Below are positions 2,733-64,000 of a DNA stretch of 64,000 nucleotides, one piece after another (within the stretch, counting starts at the first letter, position 1; every line of letters starts with the position of its first letter). Both the position numbers and the translations under genes were made by a program. Source of the stretch: a virus (taxonomy: Duplodnaviria > Heunggongvirae > Uroviricota > Caudoviricetes); the IMG/VR virus record IMGVR_UViG_647533160_000003. One strand, given 5' to 3'. The notes under the pieces were generated by a model. The model had not been told where the DNA came from, searched no databases, and saw nothing but the letters and a program-made list of their open reading frames with translations.

Positions 2733-3323
2733 TTGAGGTGCTGCTTGGCACCTCTTTCTATAGGTTCCCTAATGCTCTACAAATATATTGGAAGTGAAGA
2801 TTCGCAAAAAGTGTTACGTAACCTCAAACGGTTTGTAGAGGACGGCACTATCTCTGCTAGCGCACCTTCTTCATTCAACGACCCATCAGAGTTCAAAGTT
2901 TCGATAACGATGGGAGGTACAGAAGTGGAGCGCCGGAAACACTTTGAAGACAATGGATGTAAGGATTTTTCCTTTGAAGACTGGGATGCTGTAGCTCCTG
3001 AAGCTGCAAAATCGTTGGCTGTGGATTTGCGGAAAGAATCATTAGGGGCTTTTGGTGTGGTGTGCTTGTCACCAAACGAAGATAACATCTTGATGTGGTC
3101 ACATTACTCAGTGTCGCATAAAGGTTTCTGCATAGGCTTTGATGATGATTTTGTTACCTCTATTGAGGGGTATCACAGCTTTGATAATGTGAAATATATA
3201 CCTTCTGTTCCCGTGTTCGATGAAGTTACAGATGAGTTTAAGGTACTTTTTGATAAGCTCTTTTTCTACAAGCACGAATGCTGGAAATATGAGGAAGAAC
3301 AAAGGGTTATTACTAAAAAATAG
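2733..3323 (+). CDS. DUF2971-like protein (tentative), probably frameshifted
   Basis: N-terminal LYKYIGSED...FNDPSEF pattern; coding signal continues in another frame from the A6 run at 3317 to a stop at about 3490. Confidence 0.45.
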   Translation: MRCCLAPLSIGSLMLYKYIGSEDSQKVLRNLKRFVEDGTISASAPSSFNDPSEFKVSITMGGTEVERRKHFEDNGCKDFSFEDWDAVAPEAAKSLAVDLRKESLGAFGVVCLSPNEDNILMWSHYSVSHKGFCIGFDDDFVTSIEGYHSFDNVKYIPSVPVFDEVTDEFKVLFDKLFFYKHECWKYEEEQRVITKK

Positions 3324-3532
3324 GCGCTCAGGCATTTGATAAGAAATATATTAGAGAGATCATTCTTGGGTATAACGTTTCTCCTGAAGTAGAAGAATAT
3401 GCCCGGACACAGCTAGACACGAGCATCGAGGTTTACAAAATGAGTACACCTGATGATGGTTATCTTCTTGTCAAAGAAAAGCTGAAGTAGCTCCAGACTT
3501 TCCTCAAATGATTATGTTGGGCGCTTTTCTTA

Positions 3533-4729
3533 TTGAACTGGTTAGTGAGGCTAATAATGGATTTGTTCTCAACCAAAATAGCAAAAAACAAGCTGCACGA
3601 ATCTTTTAAACAGATTTATCAAGATAATACATATGCTCCAGTAAGAGAAGTGATACAGTCGTGGGGGCGTGGGTTACTGGAGCGTAGCGGTGAGCAGACT
3701 AAATTCGTTAAAGAGTTTCAGACAACCTTCAATTCCGCCTTATGGGAATTGTATCTGAACGAAATGTTTATTCGTCTCGATTATTCTGTCGACTACACAA
3801 AAGACAGTCCCGATTTCTGTGTTACTACACCGTCAGGCTACCAGTTTAACGTCGAAGCTGTGATATCAGATCGGCCACATAATCCACCTGCAGGTGCTCT
3901 TTTTAGCGAATCAAAATTCAAACATCAATCAACGCTAAAATTAATCGGAAAAATCAAAGACAAACATGATCTTTTTACAGGAGTTAATGGCAAAAAATTC
4001 CCGTACTCTACGATGTCTCATGTAGTTAATAAGCCGTTTGTTCTGGCGCTTGCACCCTTTGACTCCGATTTATCATTGTCTCAAAATAACACAATCATCA
4101 ATCGAGTGTTGTTTGGCATTGAGGAACCTACCACCAGAAATTTGGTGACTGGCAGCCAAACTAAAGTTACCTCAATCAAAAAGAATGAAGACGTTGAAAT
4201 TCCATTAGGTATATTTACTAACGACTCATATAAAGAAATAAGTGCGGTTATTTTCTCCACCACCGGCACTTTTGGAAAAGCCGTGGTTCAAAGCGGTATC
4301 GGTAGATATGTAAGGTCAACACGATATCGAGCCATTGATGTGAATGATTTCATCGCCAATGAAGGGATGAAAAACGAGGGAAAGCACACACAAAGGATAG
4401 GACCTGATCATTTCATCACTACATATCGGCATTTTTTAAATAACGAAGTCACTGGTGCGGATATTGTAGTTTGCCATTCCACTGCTCATGAAGAGACGCA
4501 CTTTGACGGCCTTCATATTTACTACAATCCTTTTGCGACAGTGCCACTGGACAGAAATATTTTCTTCCCCCCAGAGATAACTCATAATTTTTACGATATG
4601 GAAAAAGAACAGTCTGTTCAGAATCATCCTGATGGAGCGCTGGTATCTAGACAGGTTTTTGAACCAACTAGAGCACATTTTAGGTATATCATGAAACATT
4701 GGTTTCCAGGCTTTCTAAAAGATGTTTAA
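3533..4729 (+). CDS. hypothetical protein (accessory, lower GC)
   Basis: 398-aa ORF; no confident motif; likely start at Met 3557. Confidence 0.5.
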   Translation: MNWLVRLIMDLFSTKIAKNKLHESFKQIYQDNTYAPVREVIQSWGRGLLERSGEQTKFVKEFQTTFNSALWELYLNEMFIRLDYSVDYTKDSPDFCVTTPSGYQFNVEAVISDRPHNPPAGALFSESKFKHQSTLKLIGKIKDKHDLFTGVNGKKFPYSTMSHVVNKPFVLALAPFDSDLSLSQNNTIINRVLFGIEEPTTRNLVTGSQTKVTSIKKNEDVEIPLGIFTNDSYKEISAVIFSTTGTFGKAVVQSGIGRYVRSTRYRAIDVNDFIANEGMKNEGKHTQRIGPDHFITTYRHFLNNEVTGADIVVCHSTAHEETHFDGLHIYYNPFATVPLDRNIFFPPEITHNFYDMEKEQSVQNHPDGALVSRQVFEPTRAHFRYIMKHWFPGFLKDV

Positions 4730-4917
4730 GCATCCTGCTGGTTGAATTTGGAACCTGCTTCTGTATATAAATACTAAGTTACTTATTATTATTTATACGG
4801 AAGCAGGTCTTTTTCTATGCCAACTTCCCAGACACATTCCCTTCCGTTTCCACTTCCAAAAACTGCCACCAGTCGCTATCATCCGCTCATTGCAATAAGT
4901 AAGTAACTACCTATCAG

Positions 4918-5667
4918 GTGAGCCACATGAGCCAAATCTTTTTTGATACCATTGACAACGACCAGTACGACTTCATGACAGAGTGGAATACCGCTGTTAT
5001 GGACAAGTGGGTCGCTGAAAACATTGGTTTGTCGCGCTGCAAAGACGAGGCTGAACTCTTCGAGACGAAGTGGTTTGATTACCGCGATATGCATCCTCTC
5101 ATGGCCACCTGTCTGTTTACGGAGGCGTACAAACGTCAGTACTCAAATATCATGCTGACGCACGGTCGCGAACACTTTGAAACAGCTCCGTTCACCACCG
5201 GGTTAAAACGCCTGCCTTATCAGGAGTTGTCGACTGCCAATAAAACGTCGCTATGGAAAGCACGCCAGTTTGCTGATCGCTATTGCTGTTCATACGACTA
5301 CTTTATCTCCACGGTTCTTTCCGCAGCTGCACGGCGTCTGTGGGACAAGTTGCCGCGCCCACAGCATTTATGGCAGCCAGAACTGATTGAGATATTCGAA
5401 GAGAAATTATCCAGACGCGCAACAACCCGTCTGGATGACTCTCTGGTTAGCTTTAAGCATATGGGAGACATGCAGTTCAACCCGATTCAGGAAAGCTATT
5501 TTGAGTGGATTCTGGAGCGTTTGCGCATCATCCCCCGCAGCAAGCGCATACGCGCAATTTTCTCTGCTATCTGGCTAATGGAAATCGTTCCAGAGCGCCT
5601 TATTTCCGCCCACTTTCCAGAAGAACTGGAAGAAGCACGGCGGTTTATTGATCCCCTATCTAATTAA
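4918..5667 (+). CDS. hypothetical protein
   Basis: 249-aa ORF immediately upstream of helicase gene. Confidence 0.5.
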   Translation: MSHMSQIFFDTIDNDQYDFMTEWNTAVMDKWVAENIGLSRCKDEAELFETKWFDYRDMHPLMATCLFTEAYKRQYSNIMLTHGREHFETAPFTTGLKRLPYQELSTANKTSLWKARQFADRYCCSYDYFISTVLSAAARRLWDKLPRPQHLWQPELIEIFEEKLSRRATTRLDDSLVSFKHMGDMQFNPIQESYFEWILERLRIIPRSKRIRAIFSAIWLMEIVPERLISAHFPEELEEARRFIDPLSN

Positions 5668-14288: not shown

Positions 14289-14363
14289 GATGGTGTAGCT
14301 CAGCGGTAGAGCAGTTGGCTGTTAACCAACTGGTCGGTGGTTCGAATCCACCCACCATCGCCA
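14289..14363 (+). tRNA. tRNA-Asn (anticodon GTT)
   Basis: Cloverleaf by eye: acceptor GATGGTG/CACCATC, T-arm GGTGG-TTCGAAT-CCACC, anticodon loop CTGTTAA, 3' CCA. Confidence 0.8.
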
Positions 14364-14368
14364 ATTTA

Positions 14369-14455
14369 GGGGAGTTAGTCCGTAGAGGTAGCGGGACAGA
14401 CTGTAAATCTACTGTCATTGCGACTCGGGTGGTTCGACTCCATCACTCCCCACCA
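14369..14455 (+). tRNA. tRNA-Tyr-like (anticodon GTA), class II, atypical anticodon stem
   Basis: Acceptor GGGGAGT/ACTCCCC, loop CTGTAAA, long variable arm, CCA; outer two anticodon-stem pairs are A-C mismatches. Confidence 0.55.
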
Positions 14456-14459
14456 AATT

Positions 14460-14535
14460 GCCGGTTTAGCTCAGTTGGTAGAGCGCCTGCCTTGTAAGCA
14501 GGATGTCAGCGGTTCGAGTCCGTTAACCGGCACCA
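14460..14535 (+). tRNA. tRNA-Thr (anticodon TGT)
   Basis: Acceptor GCCGGTT/AACCGGC, D-arm GCTC-AGTTGGTAG-AGC, anticodon stem CCTGC/GCAGG with loop CTTGTAA, CCA. Confidence 0.85.
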
Positions 14536-14759
14536 ATACAACGATAAGATCATTACGGTTAATCGTCGTTCATGTGCACAATGACTGGTCGAAAGGTAGT
14601 GATCTTACCGTTGTGGTGGATTCGCAGACTGATGCGATAGCTTTCTTGGATGTTAGGGAAATGCGGCCGCAAATCTTCCCTTTCGCGAGCGGTGATCGTC
14701 CGTAGTCCTAATTGGCTGCACCGTATGCCGGAGATTCAGTACCGGCCACCACAACGGCC

Positions 14760-14846
14760 GGAGAGTAGGGAGCATGGTGCTCAAGCGGTCTTGAAAATCG
14801 TCCCATTGTGCAAACGATGATGGTTCGATTCCATTACTCTCCGCCA
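14760..14846 (+). tRNA. tRNA-Ser (anticodon TGA), class II
   Basis: Acceptor GGAGAGT/ACTCTCC, anticodon loop CTTGAAA with G-U-containing stem, long variable arm, T-loop TTCGATT, CCA. Confidence 0.65.
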
Positions 14847-15024: not shown

Positions 15025-16236
15025 TCAAAAAAGTTTTATAAATTCATAATTCTGGTCAATTAAGGATTCAATACACACCATGCAAAAATCTACATCGTTA
15101 AAATCAGGTGTGTAATATTCATCCTCATAACATTCATTTAGACCTTCAATCAATTTTTCTTTAAAAACTCCCCACGTTTCAATATGAACCATTTCCATAT
15201 AAGGCGCATGTGTATGTACTTGCAATACATCCCAGGTGTCTATAACCTCGATCCGCGGCTTGCAATTAATTTTTTCTAAATATGCCCTCCCAGAATTGTA
15301 AATTTTCGACATTGATGCCCCAAAACCTGATGGTTGGTAATGAGTGTAAATGTCATAAATTTTTTGTCCTATTCTAGGGAGTTGAGAAGCATTGGATATT
15401 TGTGGCGAATGAAAGTATCGCTCTATGGAAGAAAACGCAGAAACATTAACTAGAGTAATCGTATATGGTGCTAAAGTTCTCTCGTTCAAATTTCTACATA
15501 AAATAGCAAACCCATGGCTATTAGTCTTTTCACCGTCTGAGGACATTTTTGCCATGCTGGCTTTAATAACATTCAATTTCGAATGTAAACGAGAAGTGGA
15601 AGTCGGTTGATTATACATTTCATCATCATACAAACATATATGAAACCCGCCAAGATGACGAAATGAGAACTTGAGTGCTTCTTCCGCAATAACTAATTTA
15701 TTAATATCTAAAGGAGTAAGTGATACGTTACCTTGTAAATCATAGCAAGGTTCTAAACATAGAAAGTTTTTCTTCTGCCACACGATCATATTAAAAATAA
15801 AGTGTCTAACCAAAGGTGGCCAGTCAGGTGATATAAGTACATTGGTAATATCTCCATCAGACAAGTATGACAAGTAACTTTTTAGTTCCGCAGCATATGC
15901 CACTAGCTCAGTTCCAGCTTCCCTTGTTGGTGTTGAAAAATTTTTTAACTCAATAAGAACTAAGGATTCATTCTCTGTTGAATAAGCAACGACATCAGGT
16001 CTTAATATCTCAGATTTTGTTGCTGAGATATTCTCATCATCTGTCATTAAATGTAACAATGTTATGTTCTTTAAACAAAACTGATAACTCTCCTTAATTT
16101 TTTTCTCTTCGGGTCTTTTCGGATTAAATTCATTTAATTTATCAATATTGATGATTGAATTATATAATCCATCTTGATCAGATAATTTGTCAATTATCCA
16201 ATTTTGCATTTCCTTTTCGCTTAAAAATATTGACAC
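15025..16236 (-). CDS. PD-(D/E)xK nuclease-like protein, second gene of candidate two-gene defense operon
   Basis: 403 aa; RPDVVAYSTENESLVLIELK is a PD-x14-ExK match; GTG start preceded by GGGAG RBS; very AT-rich. Confidence 0.6.
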   Translation of the reverse strand: MSIFLSEKEMQNWIIDKLSDQDGLYNSIINIDKLNEFNPKRPEEKKIKESYQFCLKNITLLHLMTDDENISATKSEILRPDVVAYSTENESLVLIELKNFSTPTREAGTELVAYAAELKSYLSYLSDGDITNVLISPDWPPLVRHFIFNMIVWQKKNFLCLEPCYDLQGNVSLTPLDINKLVIAEEALKFSFRHLGGFHICLYDDEMYNQPTSTSRLHSKLNVIKASMAKMSSDGEKTNSHGFAILCRNLNERTLAPYTITLVNVSAFSSIERYFHSPQISNASQLPRIGQKIYDIYTHYQPSGFGASMSKIYNSGRAYLEKINCKPRIEVIDTWDVLQVHTHAPYMEMVHIETWGVFKEKLIEGLNECYEDEYYTPDFNDVDFCMVCIESLIDQNYEFIKLF

Positions 16237-16262
16237 TAATTAGGCTCCCGTTAAACCAAAAA

Positions 16263-17084
16263 TTAAAAATCTTGCTTTACTTTATCCATGGTCAGAATTT
16301 TGCTAATAATTGAAGATTCAAATCCATCTAAACCTGAGAGAAAGTTAATTAGCTTTTGGATATGTTGTTCTTTAGGTATAAGTATATATTTTATATCATT
16401 GAACTCAAAATCAATGCCAAACTTTGAAAATTTTGAGCTAATTTTTGCTTTGTCATCAGAAGTGATAACACGCTCCAAACTCAGACTAGGCCATAAATCA
16501 CCAATAAAAGGAGCTGGCACATAACGCCACTCTTTCTCGTCTGCATATATATAATTCTCTATTGTTTTATTATCTTTTCGCTCTAGCTTGCCTCTGTAAT
16601 TTTTCATATAACGCAGTAAATTATATAGATCAGAATATTCTGCTTTCAATTTCTCAAACTCTATTCTGTTTTTGGTATCTAAATTTCCTCTAGCCTTCCA
16701 AAGCGGCACCAACTTATTTTTAATAAGTCGAATTCTGGCATTGTATTTAGAAAATATTTCACTACTCTTATTCATATATAGAACTGGGTGTAGACCTTTC
16801 TTTTCCGCCCAAGACTTAGTTAGCCCAAGACCGAATTCTCCATATTTTCCGCTATGATCTCTGATTTGTGATAGTTTTATGTCACAAAACGATACCATTG
16901 GTACTGCAAACCTCCTGCGTCCCCCGACTCCTCTTATTTCCTCGCGAGCAAGAAATGGTTTAAAATATTTCTCAGCCAATATGCTATAGAAAGCATCTTC
17001 GTTTTTTGTAAAATGAAACAACGTGGTTGGATGAAGACTATAAACAGATTCAACATTCGCATCAGGATTTTCAAGGATAGTCAT
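16263..17084 (-). CDS. hypothetical protein (LFHFT N-terminal motif), first gene of candidate two-gene defense operon
   Basis: About 273 aa from Met 17084 (AGGTG RBS 5 nt upstream; ORF open to 17129); 26-nt gap to downstream gene; AT-rich. Confidence 0.55.
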   Translation of the reverse strand: MTILENPDANVESVYSLHPTTLFHFTKNEDAFYSILAEKYFKPFLAREEIRGVGGRRRFAVPMVSFCDIKLSQIRDHSGKYGEFGLGLTKSWAEKKGLHPVLYMNKSSEIFSKYNARIRLIKNKLVPLWKARGNLDTKNRIEFEKLKAEYSDLYNLLRYMKNYRGKLERKDNKTIENYIYADEKEWRYVPAPFIGDLWPSLSLERVITSDDKAKISSKFSKFGIDFEFNDIKYILIPKEQHIQKLINFLSGLDGFESSIISKILTMDKVKQDF

Positions 17085-17373
17085 TTTACACCTTGTGGAA
17101 AGCCAGTTTAGTTCTGTAAATAGTATCACACGACAGGCGGCTATTCTTCTATCAATAAATGATAGGTAAGCACTTACTTTTTACGCACGTTAACTGTATA
17201 GTTCTTTCGGATACTCACTTGAAAGGACTCAATATGGGAAATAAATGTAAACATGCGCGTCGCGCATCTCGTCAGGTGCAGAAGTCAAATCCATACATTC
17301 ACGAGCACTACCACCTCAGCTCTTTCACTAACCGCTACACGTTCCCCAGCGAAGCGCATAACGAGGCAAAGCA

Positions 17374-17619
17374 ATGACGATCACTATCTATGGACGAGAT
17401 AACTGCTCATACTGCAAACGTGCGGTCGAGCTGGCGAAGCAGCTTCACGGTCACGGTTTTGGCGATTACGAATACATCGATATTGTGTCTGCTGGGATAG
17501 ACAAAGAGAAATTGAGCGCCCTGGTTGGCAAGCCGGTGGAGACCATACCGCAGGTGTTCGTAAATGGCGAATCTATCGGTGGCTATACGGAATTCGCCGC
17601 TCTGGTGAGTACATTATAA
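17374..17619 (+). CDS. glutaredoxin (NrdH/NrdC-like)
   Basis: 81 aa with CSYC redox motif near N-terminus and TIPQVFVNG motif. Confidence 0.75.
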   Translation: MTITIYGRDNCSYCKRAVELAKQLHGHGFGDYEYIDIVSAGIDKEKLSALVGKPVETIPQVFVNGESIGGYTEFAALVSTL

Positions 17620-17624
17620 TTAAG

Positions 17625-17645
17625 AGCCGCTTAGGCGGCTTTTTA
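17625..17645 (+). terminator. rho-independent terminator
   Basis: AGCCGC-TTAG-GCGGCT hairpin followed by TTTTT. Confidence 0.6.
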
Positions 17646-17786
17646 CATGAAAGTGTGCGCTCAAATCAACTATATCTATGAAAAGGACAGTTATAAATAT
17701 TAAAAATATCTAAAATCCCTTCCGATATATGAATTATCAGATTAAAATTTCACACAATGTGCTTTTAATGAGTTATTATTTCACCT

Positions 17787-18411
17787 NNNNNNNNNNNNNN
17801 NNNNNNNNNNNNNNNNNNNNNNNNNNNNNNNNNNNNNNNNNNNNNNNNNNNNNNNNNNNNNNNNNNNNNNNNNNNNNNNNNNNNNNNNNNNNNNNNNNNN
17901 NNNNNNNNNNNNNNNNNNNNNNNNNNNNNNNNNNNNNNNNNNNNNNNNNNNNNNNNNNNNNNNNNNNNNNNNNNNNNNNNNNNNNNNNNNNNNNNNNNNN
18001 NNNNNNNNNNNNNNNNNNNNNNNNNNNNNNNNNNNNNNNNNNNNNNNNNNNNNNNNNNNNNNNNNNNNNNNNNNNNNNNNNNNNNNNNNNNNNNNNNNNN
18101 NNNNNNNNNNNNNNNNNNNNNNNNNNNNNNNNNNNNNNNNNNNNNNNNNNNNNNNNNNNNNNNNNNNNNNNNNNNNNNNNNNNNNNNNNNNNNNNNNNNN
18201 NNNNNNNNNNNNNNNNNNNNNNNNNNNNNNNNNNNNNNNNNNNNNNNNNNNNNNNNNNNNNNNNNNNNNNNNNNNNNNNNNNNNNNNNNNNNNNNNNNNN
18301 NNNNNNNNNNNNNNNNNNNNNNNNNNNNNNNNNNNNNNNNNNNNNNNNNNNNNNNNNNNNNNNNNNNNNNNNNNNNNNNNNNNNNNNNNNNNNNNNNNNN
18401 NNNNNNNNNNN
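17787..18411. other. assembly gap (625 N)
   Basis: Uninterrupted run of n. Confidence 0.99.
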
Positions 18412-19241
18412 GAAATGTTTCTACCACGGTGATAATCCATTCCATAAACCGAATCAATTCCTGAGTTCACTATCTTCATCTGAATTTCAAAAAAATCATT
18501 ATTTAAATCAAAGTAAACAATAGGGACCTCATATCTTCTGCTAGAAAAATCCATTGGTGATAGATAGTTAAGACCATTTGCACTGACCTTCACTTGAATT
18601 CCAGCCTGTATACCTGAATTCGACGTTGGAGCAGAAATAAGTAATTGAGAAAGTGGGTCTCGTTTGTCTATCCACACAATGTCCCGTTGAGTATCATTAG
18701 GTTGATATTTAGTAGGATAGTTAATTTTCGTATAGTTGAGTCCAGTCCCAACAGCTTTATAATTAGACAAACTATCTGTGAAAGGGGTATATCTCTTTGC
18801 TAATAATGCCCAGTTTTCATTTTGTTTCGCGTTTTTTTCACATTCTTCAACAATGAGTGCTTCCGCAATTTTACCTAATATTCTCATAGTTGTTTTATGG
18901 GGATCTAGTTCGATAATGATGTTTGACTTGATCACTCCTTCTTCATTAATACCAACAAGACCTAACTCTTTATCCATGAGTTCAAATAAATTTTCCCCAT
19001 GCTCAATTGCTAACAAAGCTGAAGGTCGTGATAATAATGAAGAGTTATTCCAATCTCCGAGGGAGATATCCAGACCTAAATCAATACCTTTAGTCGTCAC
19101 TACTAGCTGAGGTTTGGGAGGCGTAGCCCCTAATAACTCAGATAGCGTGTTGACTTCCGGTGTCTCTTTTATCATTTTTCTTATCCTGTTGCAGCGATCG
19201 CATGACAATACTATAAAACCAGCCATTTTCAAGTAAATCAA
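18412..19241 (-). CDS. hypothetical protein, N-terminal 276 codons only (interrupted by gap)
   Basis: Minus-strand ORF starting at 19241 and running into the N-run; AT-rich; no motif recognised. Confidence 0.5.
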
Positions 19242-19449
19242 TTACCTTTTAGGTGATGAAGATAAAAGTGAAGCCAACCCCTCCGTTCGAAAAGATAGAT
19301 TCAAAAAAATCGCCCCCCAATGATTCCATACCTACTATGTATGGAATCATTACTGAAAATGAGTTACTTTTACTCTTGATCCTATAAGAATCTATGCCTA
19401 ATATACTGTTTACTTATACAGTGCATCGGCGTAACTCGGTGATTGTCAT

Positions 19450-20553
19450 ATGAAAAATAGCTTTGACAGAGCACGCGCTGCGGAGAACACCTCAAAAGAG
19501 GCGATTGAGTATCTCGAAAGAGCATCTCAAATGCAGGCCGTTATGATCTCCCAGGTCAGCAATGACATGAGATTCTCGGACGCATTCATGTTATTCACTC
19601 GCTTATCTCTGCTGATAACAAGACGTCGGCCAGAGATCGCTGTTCATTGTATTTTGATACATGTTTTGCCGCACATTGCCGATGTAAAAGTAAGTGATAT
19701 TAATAGGTTCATGGTGAACCAACTGGTCAACCCACTAATACTGGATGGCAAAATTGTTATGGGTCGCCGCGTTTTCTCTCTGATGAAGCAGTTCCTCAGC
19801 TGGTGCGCCTTCCAGGGGATGATCGACGTGTCACCGTTAAACGATATGTCACTTAACAAAGTTGCCGGTGGCGCAAAGCCCACACCTCGCGAGCGGAAGC
19901 TGACCGACGCAGAGGTATGGGTGTTCTGGAATATATGGGACTACTTCAATGTGTGTGCTGGTACAAAATGGGCGGCCAGGCTATGTCTTGTATCCGCAAG
20001 ACGACCTGACGAAGTACTGCGGGCTAAAAAAAGTGAGTTCAATCTTAAGCGTGGGGTTTGGAATCAAGGCAAGAGGAACAAATCTGCCCGTGAGCATTCT
20101 CTGCCTTTAAGCTCATTAATGCGCACATGTATTGAAGAGTTGTTCGAATATGGTAAAGACAGCCAGTGGCTCGTGCCTTCGAATAAAAAAATCGGGAAAG
20201 ACCTTCCTATGTCTAAAGTGGCAATAGCCCAGGCATTACGTCGTATTCTGGAACGACCAGAACTGATGGAGCTTGAGCCATTTACACCCCGAGATTTGCG
20301 CCGTACTGCGCGTAGTTACTTCCCAGCATTAGGCATAAGCCAGGAGGTATCACGTAAAATCATGAACCACAGTCTTGAGGGGATAGATCGGGTCTACGAC
20401 CGGCACGATTATATGGACGAGATGCGAGACGCCTTAGAAAGTTTCTCGACGTACATCGCATCAATCGTAGAGCAACCGGATTTAGACGAAATTGACCACA
20501 AATTTAAGGGAGATCGTCTATCAACAGAGCTTATTCGTGTAAATTTTTCATAG
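19450..20553 (+). CDS. tyrosine recombinase/integrase, apparently lacking N-terminal arm-binding domain
   Basis: Catalytic-domain residues in order: R (FNVCAGTKWAARLCLVSARRPDE), H-x-x-R (RDLRRTARSY), NHS, C-terminal DRVYDRHDY; 367 aa. Confidence 0.7.
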   Translation: MKNSFDRARAAENTSKEAIEYLERASQMQAVMISQVSNDMRFSDAFMLFTRLSLLITRRRPEIAVHCILIHVLPHIADVKVSDINRFMVNQLVNPLILDGKIVMGRRVFSLMKQFLSWCAFQGMIDVSPLNDMSLNKVAGGAKPTPRERKLTDAEVWVFWNIWDYFNVCAGTKWAARLCLVSARRPDEVLRAKKSEFNLKRGVWNQGKRNKSAREHSLPLSSLMRTCIEELFEYGKDSQWLVPSNKKIGKDLPMSKVAIAQALRRILERPELMELEPFTPRDLRRTARSYFPALGISQEVSRKIMNHSLEGIDRVYDRHDYMDEMRDALESFSTYIASIVEQPDLDEIDHKFKGDRLSTELIRVNFS

Positions 20554-20940
20554 AGACTTTATGGCCTCAACAACCTTTTGTGATGCGCCTTTCTCTTTAC
20601 CGAATCGCTCGTTATATGCAGCAAGAACCTGTTTTTCGTCCTCGTTAAGAGGAGCAGTGCCTTCTTTGTATAAAAATGCTGCGAGTTCGGGTTGGCGTTC
20701 TTCCAGCACCATCATCATAAGACGACTTGGCTCAATACCCAGTGCCAGCGCCAGCGGACGAACCTTATCGATAGGCAAAGGAATTTTGCCGCTTTTAATT
20801 AAAGAAAGGTTGTTGGCGTTTTTATACCCAATTGTTTTGGCTATCTGGGCCTGGCTCATAGGTGAGGATTCAATCAACCCTGCGATAAAAGCAGCGTAGC
20901 GACTTTCTATAAATTCAATCTTGTTATCAGACATGGTCAC
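20548..20940 (-). CDS. HTH (XRE/Cro-CI-like) DNA-binding regulator
   Basis: Helix-turn-helix MSQAQIAKTIGYKNANNLSLIKSGK; convergent with integrase; palindrome motif copies in the next 170 bp. Confidence 0.6.
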   Translation of the reverse strand: MTMSDNKIEFIESRYAAFIAGLIESSPMSQAQIAKTIGYKNANNLSLIKSGKIPLPIDKVRPLALALGIEPSRLMMMVLEERQPELAAFLYKEGTAPLNEDEKQVLAAYNERFGKEKGASQKVVEAIKSL

Positions 20941-28853: not shown

Positions 28854-29444
28854 TCAACTTAACTCTTTTATCTGCTTCCAAGTTTCAATACCTATTTCAG
28901 TTAAAGCATTAAAGTAATCGTTTTTTATTTCCGCATACTTGGAATCATCAAAGTTCAGATTACCATTATTTTTTTCTTCGACGCATTCCATGAAAAATTT
29001 AAGTGCATCATTACATTTATTAAAAATAGTTTGCTGATGAGTTTTTTTAGGATTAAGCAATACAATTATCTGATTGCATTGAATCATTACAATTTTCGCC
29101 AGTTCGTCCCCAGCTTGTTGATATGTCGGGATTGCCTGCGGATTTATCGGTCGTTTTAATAAGTTGTAATTCATATCGAGATTCGCATAAAACTCACTAC
29201 TTCTTGACCTTAGCTCTTGAAGCCAACGAAGTCTTTCTGCGGTAATTATAGTTGCTTTTAATTTTTTATCTTCAATAGCAGCAGCAGAATTAATTTGTTC
29301 GTTTGTGCCTCGATATAACAAATATGCACCAATAGCAGCGCCTGCAATAGCTGATATTGAAGATATTACAGCAATCCAAATAGCAGAATGGTCAGGTTTC
29401 GTGTTCTCTGCTATTTGCTTTAATAAATTATAAATATCAAACAT
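28854..29444 (-). CDS. single-pass membrane protein, function unknown (AT-rich moron)
   Basis: 196 aa; one TM helix IWIAVISSISAIAGAAIGAYLLY; minus strand, very AT-rich. Confidence 0.55.
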   Translation of the reverse strand: MFDIYNLLKQIAENTKPDHSAIWIAVISSISAIAGAAIGAYLLYRGTNEQINSAAAIEDKKLKATIITAERLRWLQELRSRSSEFYANLDMNYNLLKRPINPQAIPTYQQAGDELAKIVMIQCNQIIVLLNPKKTHQQTIFNKCNDALKFFMECVEEKNNGNLNFDDSKYAEIKNDYFNALTEIGIETWKQIKELS

Positions 29445-29688
29445 GAGGATAATATTTCCTTTTAATTTGAATAATTAATGATAAATGCTGTGCGGAAACA
29501 TGAAGATTCTATCCTTTTCAAAACCCATATTTCTTTCGATTAAATCCACGAACACAATAGGAGAAACTCCTGCAATTAACAAGCCCTAAGAAATGGTTGT
29601 TCGAGCAGATAGCATAACGGTCTATCTTGGATTAGCGTTAATTTAAGCTCTATAATCAATACATCATGATAAGTGAGAATCTATCAAA

Positions 29689-30120
29689 ATGAGCACCAAT
29701 ATATACGAAAAAATCATGTCCGATCTCGAGTTTGACCGAGACAATCTGGAAGAAGTCTGGCGTAGACAACCCCGCCTGTTGATGGAATATGGCTCAAAAC
29801 TCGCCCATGCAGAAAGAAGTGTCGCAGAAGCAAAACTTAACCTTGAAGCTGTTGAAGCAAAGCTATACGACACAGAGCGTAAGAACTTGAGTATGAATGG
29901 CATTAAGTTCAACGAATCTGTACTGGACGCTAAGGTTAAAACAAACCCACAGTATCTGTCTAAACGGCAGAAGTTGGATGAAGCACGGCACATCGCAGAC
30001 ATATACAAACATGCTGTCGCCGCCTTTTCGCATCGCCGAGACATGATCGTTCAGGCGTCAAAGATGGCCATCGTTGAATTAGAGCGATTAGGCTCTGAAC
30101 GCTTTATTACTCCCCGTTGA
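29689..30120 (+). CDS. hypothetical protein
   Basis: 143-aa charged ORF. Confidence 0.5.
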   Translation: MSTNIYEKIMSDLEFDRDNLEEVWRRQPRLLMEYGSKLAHAERSVAEAKLNLEAVEAKLYDTERKNLSMNGIKFNESVLDAKVKTNPQYLSKRQKLDEARHIADIYKHAVAAFSHRRDMIVQASKMAIVELERLGSERFITPR

Positions 30121-60036: not shown

Positions 60037-60890
60037 ATCTGATTTATACAACAAAGCCTCAAAGTGGTCTGGGATGCTTCTTTCGCCACGCCATCCACAT
60101 TCTGTATTCTGTCCTTATGTTTCCTTCAGAGGTTACTTTATTATACTTTGTGGTCGGTGGAGAGGCTAAAACGCTTTCGAGCGTTTCACCAGCATCGAAT
60201 CGCGCGTACAGCTTGTAATCGGCGGCATTCGGGTTTGTCGGCTCACTTTTACCATGACTCATTTTTATCATCCTTTGCGATAAGGTCTTAACCCTGCCAG
60301 ACACCGGCTGCTGACGTCATAAACGAATTTTACGTCAAGTGGTAAAGCACCTTAGGGAATCGACACTTCAGAGATTTCAAATCTTAATACATAGTGAAGA
60401 TCTTACTCAATACTCGCCTGAACGGAATTATTCTTCATCACCGACAGGGGCTGCTGTGCAGTCGAAGATATTGCGCAAAAAGGACTATGGCGCTGGACTG
60501 CTGTTCGTTAACAGGAAGTGTTGATAGATTGTCGGCAGGAAGGGCTGGTAGATTAGCGGATATCTGATAGAGAACAAATACGCCGCACTATGAAGCTGGT
60601 AGCGTCAAAAAACATTGAAACTAAGGAGTCGAGCACTTCGAAAGCATTGTGTAAAGCCACGATACGAATAGATAAAAAAAGGGGAACACACTGAGACCTA
60701 AAACAGCGCACGGAGAACTATATCTTAATAGGGAAAAATAAAATTTATGAAGGGTATGCGTTGAAAACTCTTGCTATTATGTGTGTCGCATTGTTTTTTA
60801 TATTAAATGCATAAAATTTCATGTGGCATTAGAAACCTTGTACTGTTATACTTAACTATTAACAACTATTTTATTGCTATTTATTCAATA

Positions 60891-61400
60891 ATGGATACAG
60901 CGATGAACAATGTGTCTCTTTTGGAAAAGATACTTAGCTATCAAAAAAATAAAGATCAGACTTATCCTGTTCAGGAACATTTGCTAATGCTGTTATGTGT
61001 CCGGGTTAGCAATAAAATTCAAGATGTTATATCAGATGGATTTGGCAAGTACAGAATAAACAACACTATGTTTATGGTATTGTCTTTATTATATATGACA
61101 GATGATTATTGCTTATCTCCTTCTGAAATTAGTAAGGTGTTGCAGGTTACTAAACCAAACATAACGCGAATCACAGATATCTTAGAAAAGAAAGGGGTTA
61201 TTAAACGCGTTGATAATAAACACGATCGACGAGGCAAAAACTTATGCTTAACTCCGGATGGTGTTTTGTTTACGCAAAAAATGATACGTGTGAAAAATAT
61301 AATTATGAAGAAAATTTGGGAAGAGCTATCTGATGATGAACTGAAGATATTCGAGAGTGTAAGCAAAAAAATACTGAATAGTATCGATTATAAATCATGA
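60891..61400 (+). CDS. MarR-family transcriptional regulator
   Basis: Winged-helix region LSPSEISKVLQVTKPNITRITDILEKKGVIKRVDNKHDRRGKNLCLT; start at Met 60891 (ORF open from 60807); AT-rich upstream region. Confidence 0.6.
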   Translation: MDTAMNNVSLLEKILSYQKNKDQTYPVQEHLLMLLCVRVSNKIQDVISDGFGKYRINNTMFMVLSLLYMTDDYCLSPSEISKVLQVTKPNITRITDILEKKGVIKRVDNKHDRRGKNLCLTPDGVLFTQKMIRVKNIIMKKIWEELSDDELKIFESVSKKILNSIDYKS

Positions 61401-61930
61401 ACTCCGTCAAATGATTATTTGAAAACACTTGCACACCATAATGTTATTAATACGATGTACTATCAATTTCAAAGTTATCTAAGGTGAAGTCGCTTATTAA
61501 GCGATGAGTACATGCAATATATGTACTGATAGAGCATCCATTATCTAAAAGTTGCTATATAGATATGAGGTGGGCGTTATTTCTCTAAGTTATGATTCAT
61601 GAATCAGATTATTTTTTTTCGTCAATCAATGAACCATAGGAAATGAAAGAAATTTCATTCTCCATGGTTTATCTCATGTGTTGAAATGCCCCTCTCTTAT
61701 TATATGAAAAAACATTATCAACAACATTGTATTTAATTCGAGATAACGATTTAACAACATTTATTTGACAGGTATTGAATCTCGATTAATTCATGTGTTG
61801 TTACACTTTTTTGTTTGTGATAGCATCCGCGCCCCTGTTGGGGGCATAGACACTCCAATCCAAATATTTCTGGAAGCAAATGCTTTTACTCGCAGTTGCA
61901 AATGTTCGTTAACTCGTTCATCAAGAAATT

Positions 61931-64000
61931 ATGTCAATGTTACGTTTAAATAAAACCTATAAACAACAACGTTTCCGCTATTCTGCCTTGGCTAGATGTA
62001 TGGCATGGGCAAACATCTCTGTTCAGGTTCTTTTCCCATTAGCTGTCACTTTTACACCGACAATGACAGCGCGGGCGCATAATGCGGCTCTGCCTCGTCT
62101 AAGTGCGGAAAATACTGCTGTTGCTACTGACAATAATGCAGAAAAAAATATCGCGTCGGTTGCCGCGAATGCCGGTAAATTTTTAAGCAGTCAGCCGGAT
62201 AGCGATGCGACTCGCAACTTTGTTACCGGAATGGCTACTGCTAAGGCCACCCAGGAAATCCAGGAGTGGCTCGGGAAATATGGCACCGCGCGCGTCAAAC
62301 TGAATGCCGATAAAGATTTCTCGCTGAAGGATTCTTCGCTGGAAATGCTTTATCCGATATATGACACGCCGACAAATATGCTGTTCACTCAGGGGGCAAT
62401 ACATCGCACTGACGATCGCACTCAGTCAAATATTGGTTTCGGCTGGCGCCATTTCTCAGGTAATGACTGGATGGCGGGGGTGAATACCTTCATTGACCAT
62501 GATTTATCCCGTAGTCATACCCGCATTGGTATTGGTACGGAATACTGGCGTGATTATCTTAAACTGAGCGCCAATGGTTATATCCGGGCTTCTGGCTGGA
62601 AAAAATCGCCGGATGTTGAGGATTATCAGGAACGTCCGGCGAATGGCTGGGATATCCGTGCTGAGGGCTATTTACCGGCCTGGCCACAGCTTGGCGCAAG
62701 CCTGATGTATGAACAGTATTACGGCGATGAGGTAGGACTGTTTGGTAAAGATAAACGCCAGAAAAACCCACATGCTATTTCAGCTGGGGTGAACTACACG
62801 CCTGTACCTCTTCTGACCCTGAGCGCAGAGCATAAGCAGGGCAAGAGCGGTCAGAATGACACCCGTTTGGGCCTGGAAATTAACTACCGGATTGGCGAAC
62901 CTCTGGAAAAACAACTCGATACAGACAGCATTCGCGAGCGCCGTGTGCTGACAGGCAGCCGCTATGACCTGGTTGAGCGTAATAACAACATCGTTCTTGA
63001 ATACCGCAAATCTGAAGTGATCCGTATTGCTCTGCCTGAGCGTATTGAAGGTAAGAGCGGGCAGACGGTATCCCTGGGGCTTGTGGTCAGTAAAGCAACC
63101 CACGGTCTAAAAAATGTGCAGTGGGAGGCGTCGTCTTTGCTGGCTGCGGGCGGTAAAATTACCGGGCAGGGCAACCAGTGGCAAGTGACGCTCCCGGCTT
63201 ATCAGGCAGGCAAAGACAATTATTACGCGATCTCTGCGGTAGCATATGATAACAAAGGCAATGCCTCGAAGCGTGTACAGACACAGGTGGTCATTACCGG
63301 TGCGAGTATGAGTGCCGATCGTTCTGCGCTAACGCTTGACGGACAGGACAGTATCCAGATGCTTGCTAATGGTAGCTCGCAAAAAACGCTGGCGCTGTCT
63401 CTGCGCGATGCCGAGGGACAACCTATCACGGGTATGAAAGATCAGATCAAGACTGAGCTGACGTTTAAACCTGCCGGAAACATCGTAACGCGGGCTCTTA
63501 GGTCTGCTAAATCACAGACACAGCCAACATTGGGTGAGTTCACCGAAACTGAAGCAGGGGTGTATCAGTCAGTCTTCACTACTGGTACGCAATCAGGTGA
63601 AGCAACCATTACTGTGAGCATTGATGGTATGAGCAAAACCGTTACTGCCGATTTGCGTGCCACAATGATGGATGTGACAAAGTCCACTCTGAGTGTGAGT
63701 GAGCTTTCAGATGATGTGGCTGCTGATGGTCAGCAATCCTACACGCTGACGCTTACAGCGGTAGATACCGATGGCAACCCGGTGGAGGGAGAAGCCAGCC
63801 GTTTGCGCTTTGTTCCACAGGACAACAGCGGTGTTACCATTGGCACTATTTCGGAGATAAAGCCGGGGGTCTATAGCGCCACGGTTTCTTCGACCCGTGC
63901 CGGAAACGTTGTTGTGCGTGCCTTCAGCGAGCAGTATCAGCTGGGCACGTTACAACAAACGCTGAAGTTTGTTGCCGGGCCGCTTGATGCAGCACATTCG
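61931..64000 (+). CDS. fdeC: inverse-autotransporter adhesin FdeC/EaeH (intimin/invasin family), 5' partial
   Basis: Translation from 61931 (MSMLRLNKTYKQQRFRYSALARCMAWANISVQVLFPLAVTF...) matches E. coli FdeC as recalled; beta-barrel then Big-like repeats; runs off window end. Confidence 0.8.
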   Translation, partial: MSMLRLNKTYKQQRFRYSALARCMAWANISVQVLFPLAVTFTPTMTARAHNAALPRLSAENTAVATDNNAEKNIASVAANAGKFLSSQPDSDATRNFVTGMATAKATQEIQEWLGKYGTARVKLNADKDFSLKDSSLEMLYPIYDTPTNMLFTQGAIHRTDDRTQSNIGFGWRHFSGNDWMAGVNTFIDHDLSRSHTRIGIGTEYWRDYLKLSANGYIRASGWKKSPDVEDYQERPANGWDIRAEGYLPAWPQLGASLMYEQYYGDEVGLFGKDKRQKNPHAISAGVNYTPVPLLTLSAEHKQGKSGQNDTRLGLEINYRIGEPLEKQLDTDSIRERRVLTGSRYDLVERNNNIVLEYRKSEVIRIALPERIEGKSGQTVSLGLVVSKATHGLKNVQWEASSLLAAGGKITGQGNQWQVTLPAYQAGKDNYYAISAVAYDNKGNASKRVQTQVVITGASMSADRSALTLDGQDSIQMLANGSSQKTLALSLRDAEGQPITGMKDQIKTELTFKPAGNIVTRALRSAKSQTQPTLGEFTETEAGVYQSVFTTGTQSGEATITVSIDGMSKTVTADLRATMMDVTKSTLSVSELSDDVAADGQQSYTLTLTAVDTDGNPVEGEASRLRFVPQDNSGVTIGTISEIKPGVYSATVSSTRAGNVVVRAFSEQYQLGTLQQTLKFVAGPLDAAHS

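Follow-up and report, generated by a model that had tools for sequence, protein, structure and literature searches.

This study concerns a minus-strand gene in a stretch of 64,000 nt of viral DNA (IMG/VR record IMGVR_UViG_647533160_000003; the whole stretch is hereafter called the window), which is a piece of a phage-plasmid of Escherichia coli of the SSU5 type and in which the 3' end of the gene is covered by a scaffold gap. Comparison with related plasmids, family-wide sequence searches and structure prediction showed that the gene is a real and complete member of a rare, uncharacterised family within a well-known enzyme superfamily, the encoded protein probably having the restriction-endonuclease-like PD-(D/E)xK fold according to the structural models, and the gene can reasonably be considered a candidate for a novel defence factor encoded by a single gene. 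With moderate confidence the product is interpreted as a stand-alone nuclease of the PD-(D/E)xK type, encoded by a one-gene cassette in an exchangeable slot of the phage-plasmid and acting most likely against competing phages or plasmids.

The scaffold gap (17787..18411) consists of exactly 625 N and is the sole N-run of the window, as the original prediction, which was made from the sequence of the window, had described. Both flanks of the N-run were matched in seven complete E. coli plasmids (six at 100.0% identity and one at 99.2%), and two IMG/VR viral contigs (L060 and L061), which were found using a 34-nt flank pattern, also span the gap. The sequence between the flanks is the same 185 nt in all nine spanning records, as compared to 625 N in the window. 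Window positions 17786 and 18412 correspond to positions 5587 and 5773 of one of the plasmids (L001), to which the window is 100% identical across 1,587 nt on one side and 2,189 nt (18412-20600) on the other. The 185-nt stretch comprises the gene from codon 255 to codon 307 (SPEIHEKLCAYYNLIYSIIIGDMKLEALLLNEEALKGYVTEIKDRQGKRIIVT), its stop codon and a 26-nt spacer, and no repeat or additional gene was found in this stretch in the nine spanning records. The C-terminus and any downstream gene, both of which the original prediction had regarded as lost in the gap, can thus be read from the relatives, and no support was found for repeats or additional genes of the island being hidden there. In the relatives the complete gene is 924 nt long and encodes a 307-amino acid (aa) protein (WP_052322692.1, “hypothetical protein”), so that closure by homology gives neither a short fragment nor a housekeeping gene, the two outcomes against which the original prediction had been set. 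The part resolved in the window (18412..19175, minus strand), which comprises codons 1-254 and 2 nt of codon 255, is 100% identical to L001 and, as checked by codon position, includes the entire predicted nuclease core and all 15 family-invariant residues. Judged from this sequence comparison, the best explanation is that the gene is intact in the window as well, encoding 307 aa with the last 53 codons lying within the scaffold gap.

The length of 625 N is most likely the size estimate of a scaffolder, because every record with matching flanks has 185 nt between them. That 625 N is instead the true length in this strain, with about 440 extra bases (e.g., a small insertion) breaking the 3' end and leaving a pseudogene, was considered improbable. 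The N-run does exceed the 185 nt of the relatives by 440 nt, and about ten independent draft assemblies end contigs in the same 3' region, two of them (loci L062 and L063) at most one base from the edge of the window gap. However, none of the nine records that span the site carries an insertion, a second copy of the region is absent from the 5,426 complete E. coli genomes searched, and the truncation points of the drafts are spread over codons 212-283, as is expected of a drop in coverage rather than of a fixed insertion. The drafts are represented by about ten “partial” entries with an intact N-terminus in the 90%-identity cluster of the protein, which end at residue 212, 225, 238, 250, 251, 255, 269, 274 or 283 and are contig ends within the final 300 nt of the gene; one of them, WP_000588995.1 (255 aa, partial), equals the open reading frame (ORF) of the window read up to the gap, with TCN translated as Ser. 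The 3' end of the gene together with the spacer to the adjacent grxA gene is locally the AT-richest stretch (25-35% G+C per 100 nt), and the gap and the draft contig ends are probably due to a drop-out of sequencing coverage at this AT-rich gene end. A repeat was rejected as the cause of the gap because the region occurs in a single place per E. coli genome and never on a chromosome. The gap therefore needs no special explanation, being closable by homology and a probable example of recurrent assembly drop-out at an AT-rich gene end.

At the other end of the gene, the minus-strand frame is open from a TTG codon at 19241 to the gap edge at 18412 (276 codons). The open frame of at least 276 codons of the original prediction hence stands, but its start was revised: the true start is almost certainly the ATG at 19175, located 66 nt downstream of the TTG, because a Shine-Dalgarno-like AGGA 8 nt upstream of this ATG (19184..19187, minus strand; direct reading of the sequence), the RefSeq annotation and the start of a homolog all agree. 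RefSeq annotates the ATG as the start in seven identical plasmids, and the Salmonella/Erwinia homolog P0002, which is 49% identical, starts at the same residue (MLKETPE vs. MIKETPE). Two overlapping sigma-70-like promoter candidates (TTTACT-16-TATAGT and TTGAAA-16-TATTGT; 19205..19237, minus strand, corresponding to L001 6598-6566) are located about 30 nt upstream of the start codon; they are consensus matches only, and the number of promoter-like matches in the region is not above the expectation from shuffled sequence. The gene has a G+C content of 36.6% compared to 44.9% for the window, in line with its earlier description as AT-rich. A literature search using the protein accession returned no publication.

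The original prediction had recognised no motif in the protein. A multiple sequence alignment of 56 homologs nevertheless revealed an invariant E...D...QxK signature among 15 invariant columns (G101, E105, C112, A141, T144, D165, W168, G192, Q194, K196, S198, Y215, P218, Y221, and F222). The putative catalytic signature stretches over 18588..18863 on the minus strand, with E105 encoded at 18861-18863, D165 at 18681-18683, Q194 at 18594-18596, and K196 at 18588-18590. Confident AlphaFold models were obtained for the 283-aa representative of the cluster (predicted local distance difference test, pLDDT, 87.6; predicted template modelling score, pTM, 0.84) and for the core encoded by the window itself, residues 86-254 (pLDDT 88.6, pTM 0.86). 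Both models have a helix at residues 92-114 that bears E105, strands at 139-143, 166-170 (with D165 at its head) and 192-198 (with Q194-x-K196), a helix at 201-211, a strand at 219-223 and a helix at 228-237. The modelled order is the alpha-beta-beta-beta-alpha-beta order of PD-(D/E)xK nucleases, with a mixed sheet and flanking helices. Within the signature of the superfamily E105, D165 and K196 are invariant at the canonical places, whereas the middle D/E is replaced by the invariant Q194; glutamine variants of this middle acidic position are known in some PD-(D/E)xK branches.

Structural comparison of the core model agreed with this assignment, as 19 of the 20 matches that aligned at least 85 residues were PD-(D/E)xK-fold proteins and nearly all of these nucleases. 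The leading matches were the CdiA-CT tRNase 4g6v (score 5.3), NgoMIV (4.9), PaqCI, Bax1 and N.BspD6I, and the others included SwaI, HindIII, AgeI, BsaWI, PspGI, YaeQ, Cfr10I, BstEII and PfoI. A Foldseek search against the PDB gave no match below E = 3, and profile searches of the PDB, run with either the complete or the core alignment, produced chance matches only (E near 1). Likewise, the Pfam, NCBIfam, PADLOC 2.0 and PHROGs libraries, which include the curated families of the PD-(D/E)xK clan, returned no match at E-values up to 1 for either the fragment or the full-length 307-aa protein, and this includes all defence models of PADLOC-DB 2.0; the neighbouring AbiGi gene scored 5.5e-47 in the same scan and the search was therefore working. 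The domain and structure search of the complete protein that had been proposed earlier hence produced nothing from domain libraries but did produce, from structure, a PD-(D/E)xK-like core in both the 283-aa representative and the window core. The view of the original prediction that no function could be given to the gene is shared by its RefSeq annotation and by the family libraries. Based on the models, the protein probably has a restriction-endonuclease-like PD-(D/E)xK fold; the family lies far from all solved structures, and its structural similarity is too weak for assignment to a subfamily.

Type IIP restriction endonucleases of the Cfr10I/NgoMIV/AgeI/BsaWI/PspGI group, enzymes with the PD-(D/E)xK fold, account for many of the top structural matches and are among the closest known systems. 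This branch also lacks the middle acidic residue of the motif. The gene could accordingly encode an orphan type II-like restriction endonuclease against which the host is protected by unlinked methylation, whether by host Dam or Dcm or by the plasmid's own core N6-adenine methyltransferase, and a “phage N-6-adenine-methyltransferase” is indeed present on the host plasmid about 75 kb away. The genomic context of the family speaks against this possibility, to which we assign a low probability. The neighbourhoods of family members were compared at 48 loci, where no cognate methyltransferase, adjacent or fused as in type II restriction-modification systems, recurs among the 150 flanking ORFs, and phmmer searches with C5-methylase and Dam-like queries retrieved no methyltransferase up to about 8 kb away except for one fusion protein and one weak match. 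In addition, an unlinked protector would be unstable for a gene that moves between phyla.

The fusion protein (P0074 of Priestia aryabhattai; L055 6001-7989, 662 aa) combines a full-length C5-cytosine-methylase-like domain (Pfam E = 5.5e-36) with the entire length of the family in what is genuinely one ORF, adjacent to an AAA_15 ATPase gene. Motif I (FSGIGG) of its methylase-like domain is intact, while PCQ is changed to ASLIRR and ENV to ESL, and the GN motif is degenerate. The protein probably does not methylate DNA because the catalytic PCQ cysteine is absent, which weakens the only fused methylase as support for an orphan type II enzyme, and for the same reason, together with the degenerate ENV and GN motifs, the fusion was rejected as evidence of restriction-modification. 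Judging by these motifs, the methylase part is likely a DNA-binding remnant and not a methylase; such a dead methylase may have been reused as a DNA-recognition module, and the fusion supports DNA as the putative target of the family rather than a classical restriction-modification enzyme.

Another alternative is that the protein is an addiction or abortive-infection toxin, i.e., an RNase or DNase resembling the PD-(D/E)xK toxins of the CdiA-CT type, that stabilises the plasmid and whose antidote is an unrecognised small RNA or tiny ORF. In the known CdiA-CT toxins (the tRNases of Burkholderia pseudomallei 1026b and E479 and the DNase of E. coli EC869), the nuclease is the C-terminal domain of a secreted polymorphic toxin whose immunity gene lies alongside. 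The protein of the window, by contrast, is a free-standing cytoplasmic protein of about double that size and lacks an immunity partner. As in none of the 48 loci a conserved neighbour was found and the flanks of the gene within its cassette contain no ORF that could be the partner in a type II toxin-antitoxin system, and as the non-coding DNA of the cassette amounts to only about 150-190 nt on each side of the gene, a toxin is very improbable. A search of the cassette against Rfam gave nothing significant either (best E = 0.097, 18.7 bits compared to a gathering score of 117).

The solitary state of the gene extends to the family as a whole. All-against-all BLAST of 264 flanking ORFs from the 48 loci identified no partner gene shared beyond closely related elements, and in a Pfam scan of the 150 nearest neighbours no family occurred in more than three of them. 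The family thus corresponds to type IV restriction enzymes in being a solitary nuclease-fold protein without a methyltransferase, but differs from them in that neither residues 1-90 nor any other part of the protein matched a Pfam domain for a modified-base reader (SRA, EVE/PUA, YTH, or MspJI-type) or for an NTPase motor. A rough count, made without a matched control, gave matches to known defence proteins for about 20 of the 150 neighbours; examples are Bunzi BnzB, Lamassu LmuB, MADS mad2/3, a type IIG restriction-modification enzyme, RmrA, Septu PtuA, Gabija GajB, PD-T7-3, AbiEi and type I specificity subunits. This proportion far exceeds the few percent of genes normally devoted to defence.

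The family itself is rare. A word-indexed search retrieved 68 homologs with 28-53% identity, all of which are unnamed or “hypothetical,” and only 238 clusters at E-values up to 1e-3 were recovered when 1.84 billion representative proteins were searched exhaustively with a profile. Relatives are present in 41 of 185,579 species genomes, belonging to the Campylobacterota, Gamma- and Betaproteobacteria, Planctomycetota, Cyanobacteria, Bacillota, Bacteroidota and Actinomycetota, and in 22 of 2.9 million viral contigs. They lie in mobile or variable contexts (prophages, plasmids, islands, and integrative and conjugative elements, ICEs), among them a Salmonella-type island, in which the gene adjoins an integrase, the cargo of an ICE of Azotobacter amid toxin-antitoxin genes, Acinetobacter plasmids of 6-12 kb, and phages of Clostridium and Agathobacter, in the latter directly before the tape-measure gene. 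Besides the fusion described above, the family includes three variants (P0030, P0042, and P0043; 411 aa) that are extended at the N-terminus by about 110 aa, Cys-rich and resembling a zinc ribbon, and one (P0125; 644 aa) with C-terminal MORN repeats.

The host element was identified by a megablast search of 5,426 complete E. coli genomes with window positions 16200-20600, which gave matches in 252 genomes, all on plasmids of about 110 kb and none on a chromosome. Over positions 30-54 kb the window shares 97.6% identity with Escherichia phage Cyrano and about 77% with Salmonella phage SSU5, and the annotated relative pLH09-a-C encodes RepB and ParB alongside terminase, portal, capsid and tail proteins. 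Taken together, the plasmid-only matches, the identity to these phages and the gene content of pLH09-a-C identify the window as a piece of an SSU5-type E. coli phage-plasmid.

Comparison of sister plasmids delimited a variable cargo slot (17621..19318) that reaches from the stop codon of grxA to an inverted repeat. The backbone identity of the sister plasmids ends at the grxA stop (17600-17620) and restarts at 19299-19319, and three states of the slot were found, which are a spacer of about 80 nt (L013), a 202-aa ORF together with a YafO-family toxin gene (L012), and the nuclease-fold gene alone as in the window. The second state occurs in sister plasmid pYLMB30c (L012 2016-3044), and the nuclease-fold gene is present in seven of the 252 matching genomes. 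The slot cassette has a G+C content of 35.4%, compared to 49.6% for grxA, 46.7% for the recombinase gene on the other side and 44.9% for the window. Its left border is formed by the grxA-family glutaredoxin gene (17374..17619, plus strand), which is followed by a terminator-like hairpin (17625-17640). The final grxA codons vary with the slot content (window 17600-17620 compared to about 1900-1921 in L012 and L013), and since these codons differ between slot variants, a recombination breakpoint is placed at or just inside the grxA 3' end. The conserved right border is a perfect inverted repeat with 12-bp arms and a 7-nt spacer (ATGATTCCATAC-ctactat-GTATGGAATCAT; 19320..19350), which is located about 100 nt upstream of the recombinase gene and is kept in all three slot variants. 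Its sequence makes this repeat a candidate core site of the lox/dif type, which might account for the exchange of cargo at the slot. The tyrosine recombinase/integrase gene (19450..20553, plus strand; Phage_integrase, E = 2.9e-10) is the divergent neighbour of the nuclease-fold gene, which the original prediction had correctly placed beside an integrase.

These features of the slot are also compatible with a free-standing homing endonuclease, a selfish gene that would cut the empty-slot allele and copy itself by repair without benefit to the host. Homing endonucleases with the PD-(D/E)xK fold exist. The gene is solitary, has its own putative promoter, and sits at intergenic spots in phages (between grxA and the integrase gene here, before the tape-measure gene in the Agathobacter phages); it is sporadic among otherwise near-identical plasmids, and the adjacent grxA 3' end, which varies with the slot variant, could be a co-conversion tract. 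The family is, however, equally common in chromosomal islands, in ICE cargo, on small plasmids and beside defence genes, where homing is not expected, and the same slot can hold the unrelated YafO pair, an indication that the slot is a hotspot rather than the gene an invader. Homing is therefore regarded as an improbable explanation.

A further possibility is that the fold is correctly predicted while the role lies outside conflict, the protein being, for example, a nuclease for repair or recombination, or a DNA-binding protein that has no catalytic activity and works for the mobile element itself. Domains of the PD-(D/E)xK type are functionally diverse, genes of DNA metabolism abound in the SSU5 backbone, and the weak structural similarity of the family, which precludes its placement in a subfamily, leaves room for such a role. 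On the other hand, the gene is accessory and missing from about 97% of the sister plasmids, it is not linked to a replication or recombination gene set across the loci, and the invariant E/D/QxK set argues for catalysis. Such a role was thus judged to be unlikely.

For the interpretation favoured here, a nuclease acting in conflicts between mobile elements, the following mechanism is proposed. Residues ~90-250 (the C-terminal two thirds) would adopt the restriction-endonuclease-like fold, with the active site of a metal-dependent phosphodiesterase made up of E105 from the first long helix, D165 from the start of core strand two and Q194-x-K196 from core strand three, while the N-terminal domain of about 85 aa and the C-terminal helical tail would probably serve target recognition or oligomerisation. 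The gene, which sits in the slot between grxA and the lox-like repeat, would be passed on as an autonomous cassette of low G+C content, holding this gene alone under a promoter of its own. The encoded protein would most likely be a nucleic acid-cutting effector that excludes or restricts incoming phage or plasmid DNA, and the host could be spared either by discrimination of self from non-self inside the single polypeptide, as in type IV restriction, or by activation tied to infection. A more far-reaching version, which we put forward only tentatively, is that the family represents a new single-protein immunity system in which a nuclease of about 300 aa alone distinguishes foreign nucleic acid and blocks phages and plasmids, its cassette being traded at the lox-like site of phage-plasmids and in defence islands across many phyla.

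Among known one-polypeptide nucleases, Shedu (SduA, DUF4263) and the Mrr-type type IV enzymes resemble the putative nuclease in having no methyltransferase and in being carried on mobile elements or in defence islands. Mrr-type enzymes have a D...QxK motif, which is similar to the Q-x-K variant of the family. However, the PADLOC 2.0 and Pfam models, including DUF4263 and Mrr_cat, were among those giving no match at E-values up to 1, and the protein has no sensor or modified-base-binding domain recognisable by Pfam. With respect to the element, variable defence cargo has been reported for SSU5-group phage-plasmids (AbiH, PrrC, PD-T4-3, PD-T7-5, restriction-modification systems, and Lamassu). 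The nuclease-fold gene, too, is accessory and variable and is carried by an element of this kind, with slot contents swapped between sister plasmids, but it is unrecognised by PADLOC, and the slot at a recombinase site is not described in the published account of that cargo.

If the prediction holds, an unnamed and very small nuclease family would join the one-gene defence or exclusion factors of temperate phages, plasmids and ICEs, and a 300-aa partnerless enzyme able to discriminate self from non-self would offer a compact system in which to study target discrimination and might become a new reagent. The interval from grxA to the lox-like repeat is a specific exchangeable slot in SSU5-type phage-plasmids, which are common in clinical E. 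coli, Salmonella and Shigella, and is hence a place to seek new cargo.

The original prediction had assigned the gene to one AT-rich island. The low-G+C region was instead found to consist of two independent units, a pair of genes made up of an AbiGi-family gene and a gene for a 403-aa partner (15025-17129, minus strand; PADLOC 5.5e-47 for AbiGi; 33.6% G+C) and the slot cassette (17621-19318), between which grxA has a normal G+C content. The AbiGi pair is found in sister plasmids irrespective of the slot content and is thus a feature of the backbone; because it is present whatever the slot holds, it was rejected as part of a unit with the nuclease-fold gene, and the presumed island therefore represents two unrelated units. 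The 403-aa partner matched neither AbiGii nor any other PADLOC model; its only matches, all weak, were to the nuclease domain at the N-terminus of type I HsdR (E = 0.008). The two genes may form a pair like AbiG in which the second component is a different one. Just upstream of the pair, four tRNA genes (Asn-GTT, Tyr-GTA, Thr-TGT, and Ser-TGA) are clustered at 14289-14846.

Further low-G+C patches of the window, at 61001-62000 (G+C fraction 0.33), 29001-30000 (0.37) and 3001-5000 (0.39-0.40), may be additional accessory cargo; ORFs of 197 aa (60807-61400) and 196 aa (28854-29444) are located at or near such patches. In the sister plasmid NZ_CP100547.1 (80630-83921 and 98761-99237) the annotations include copies of metG and apbC as well as a gene for a trimethoprim-resistant dihydrofolate reductase, dfrA51, beside a thymidylate synthase gene.
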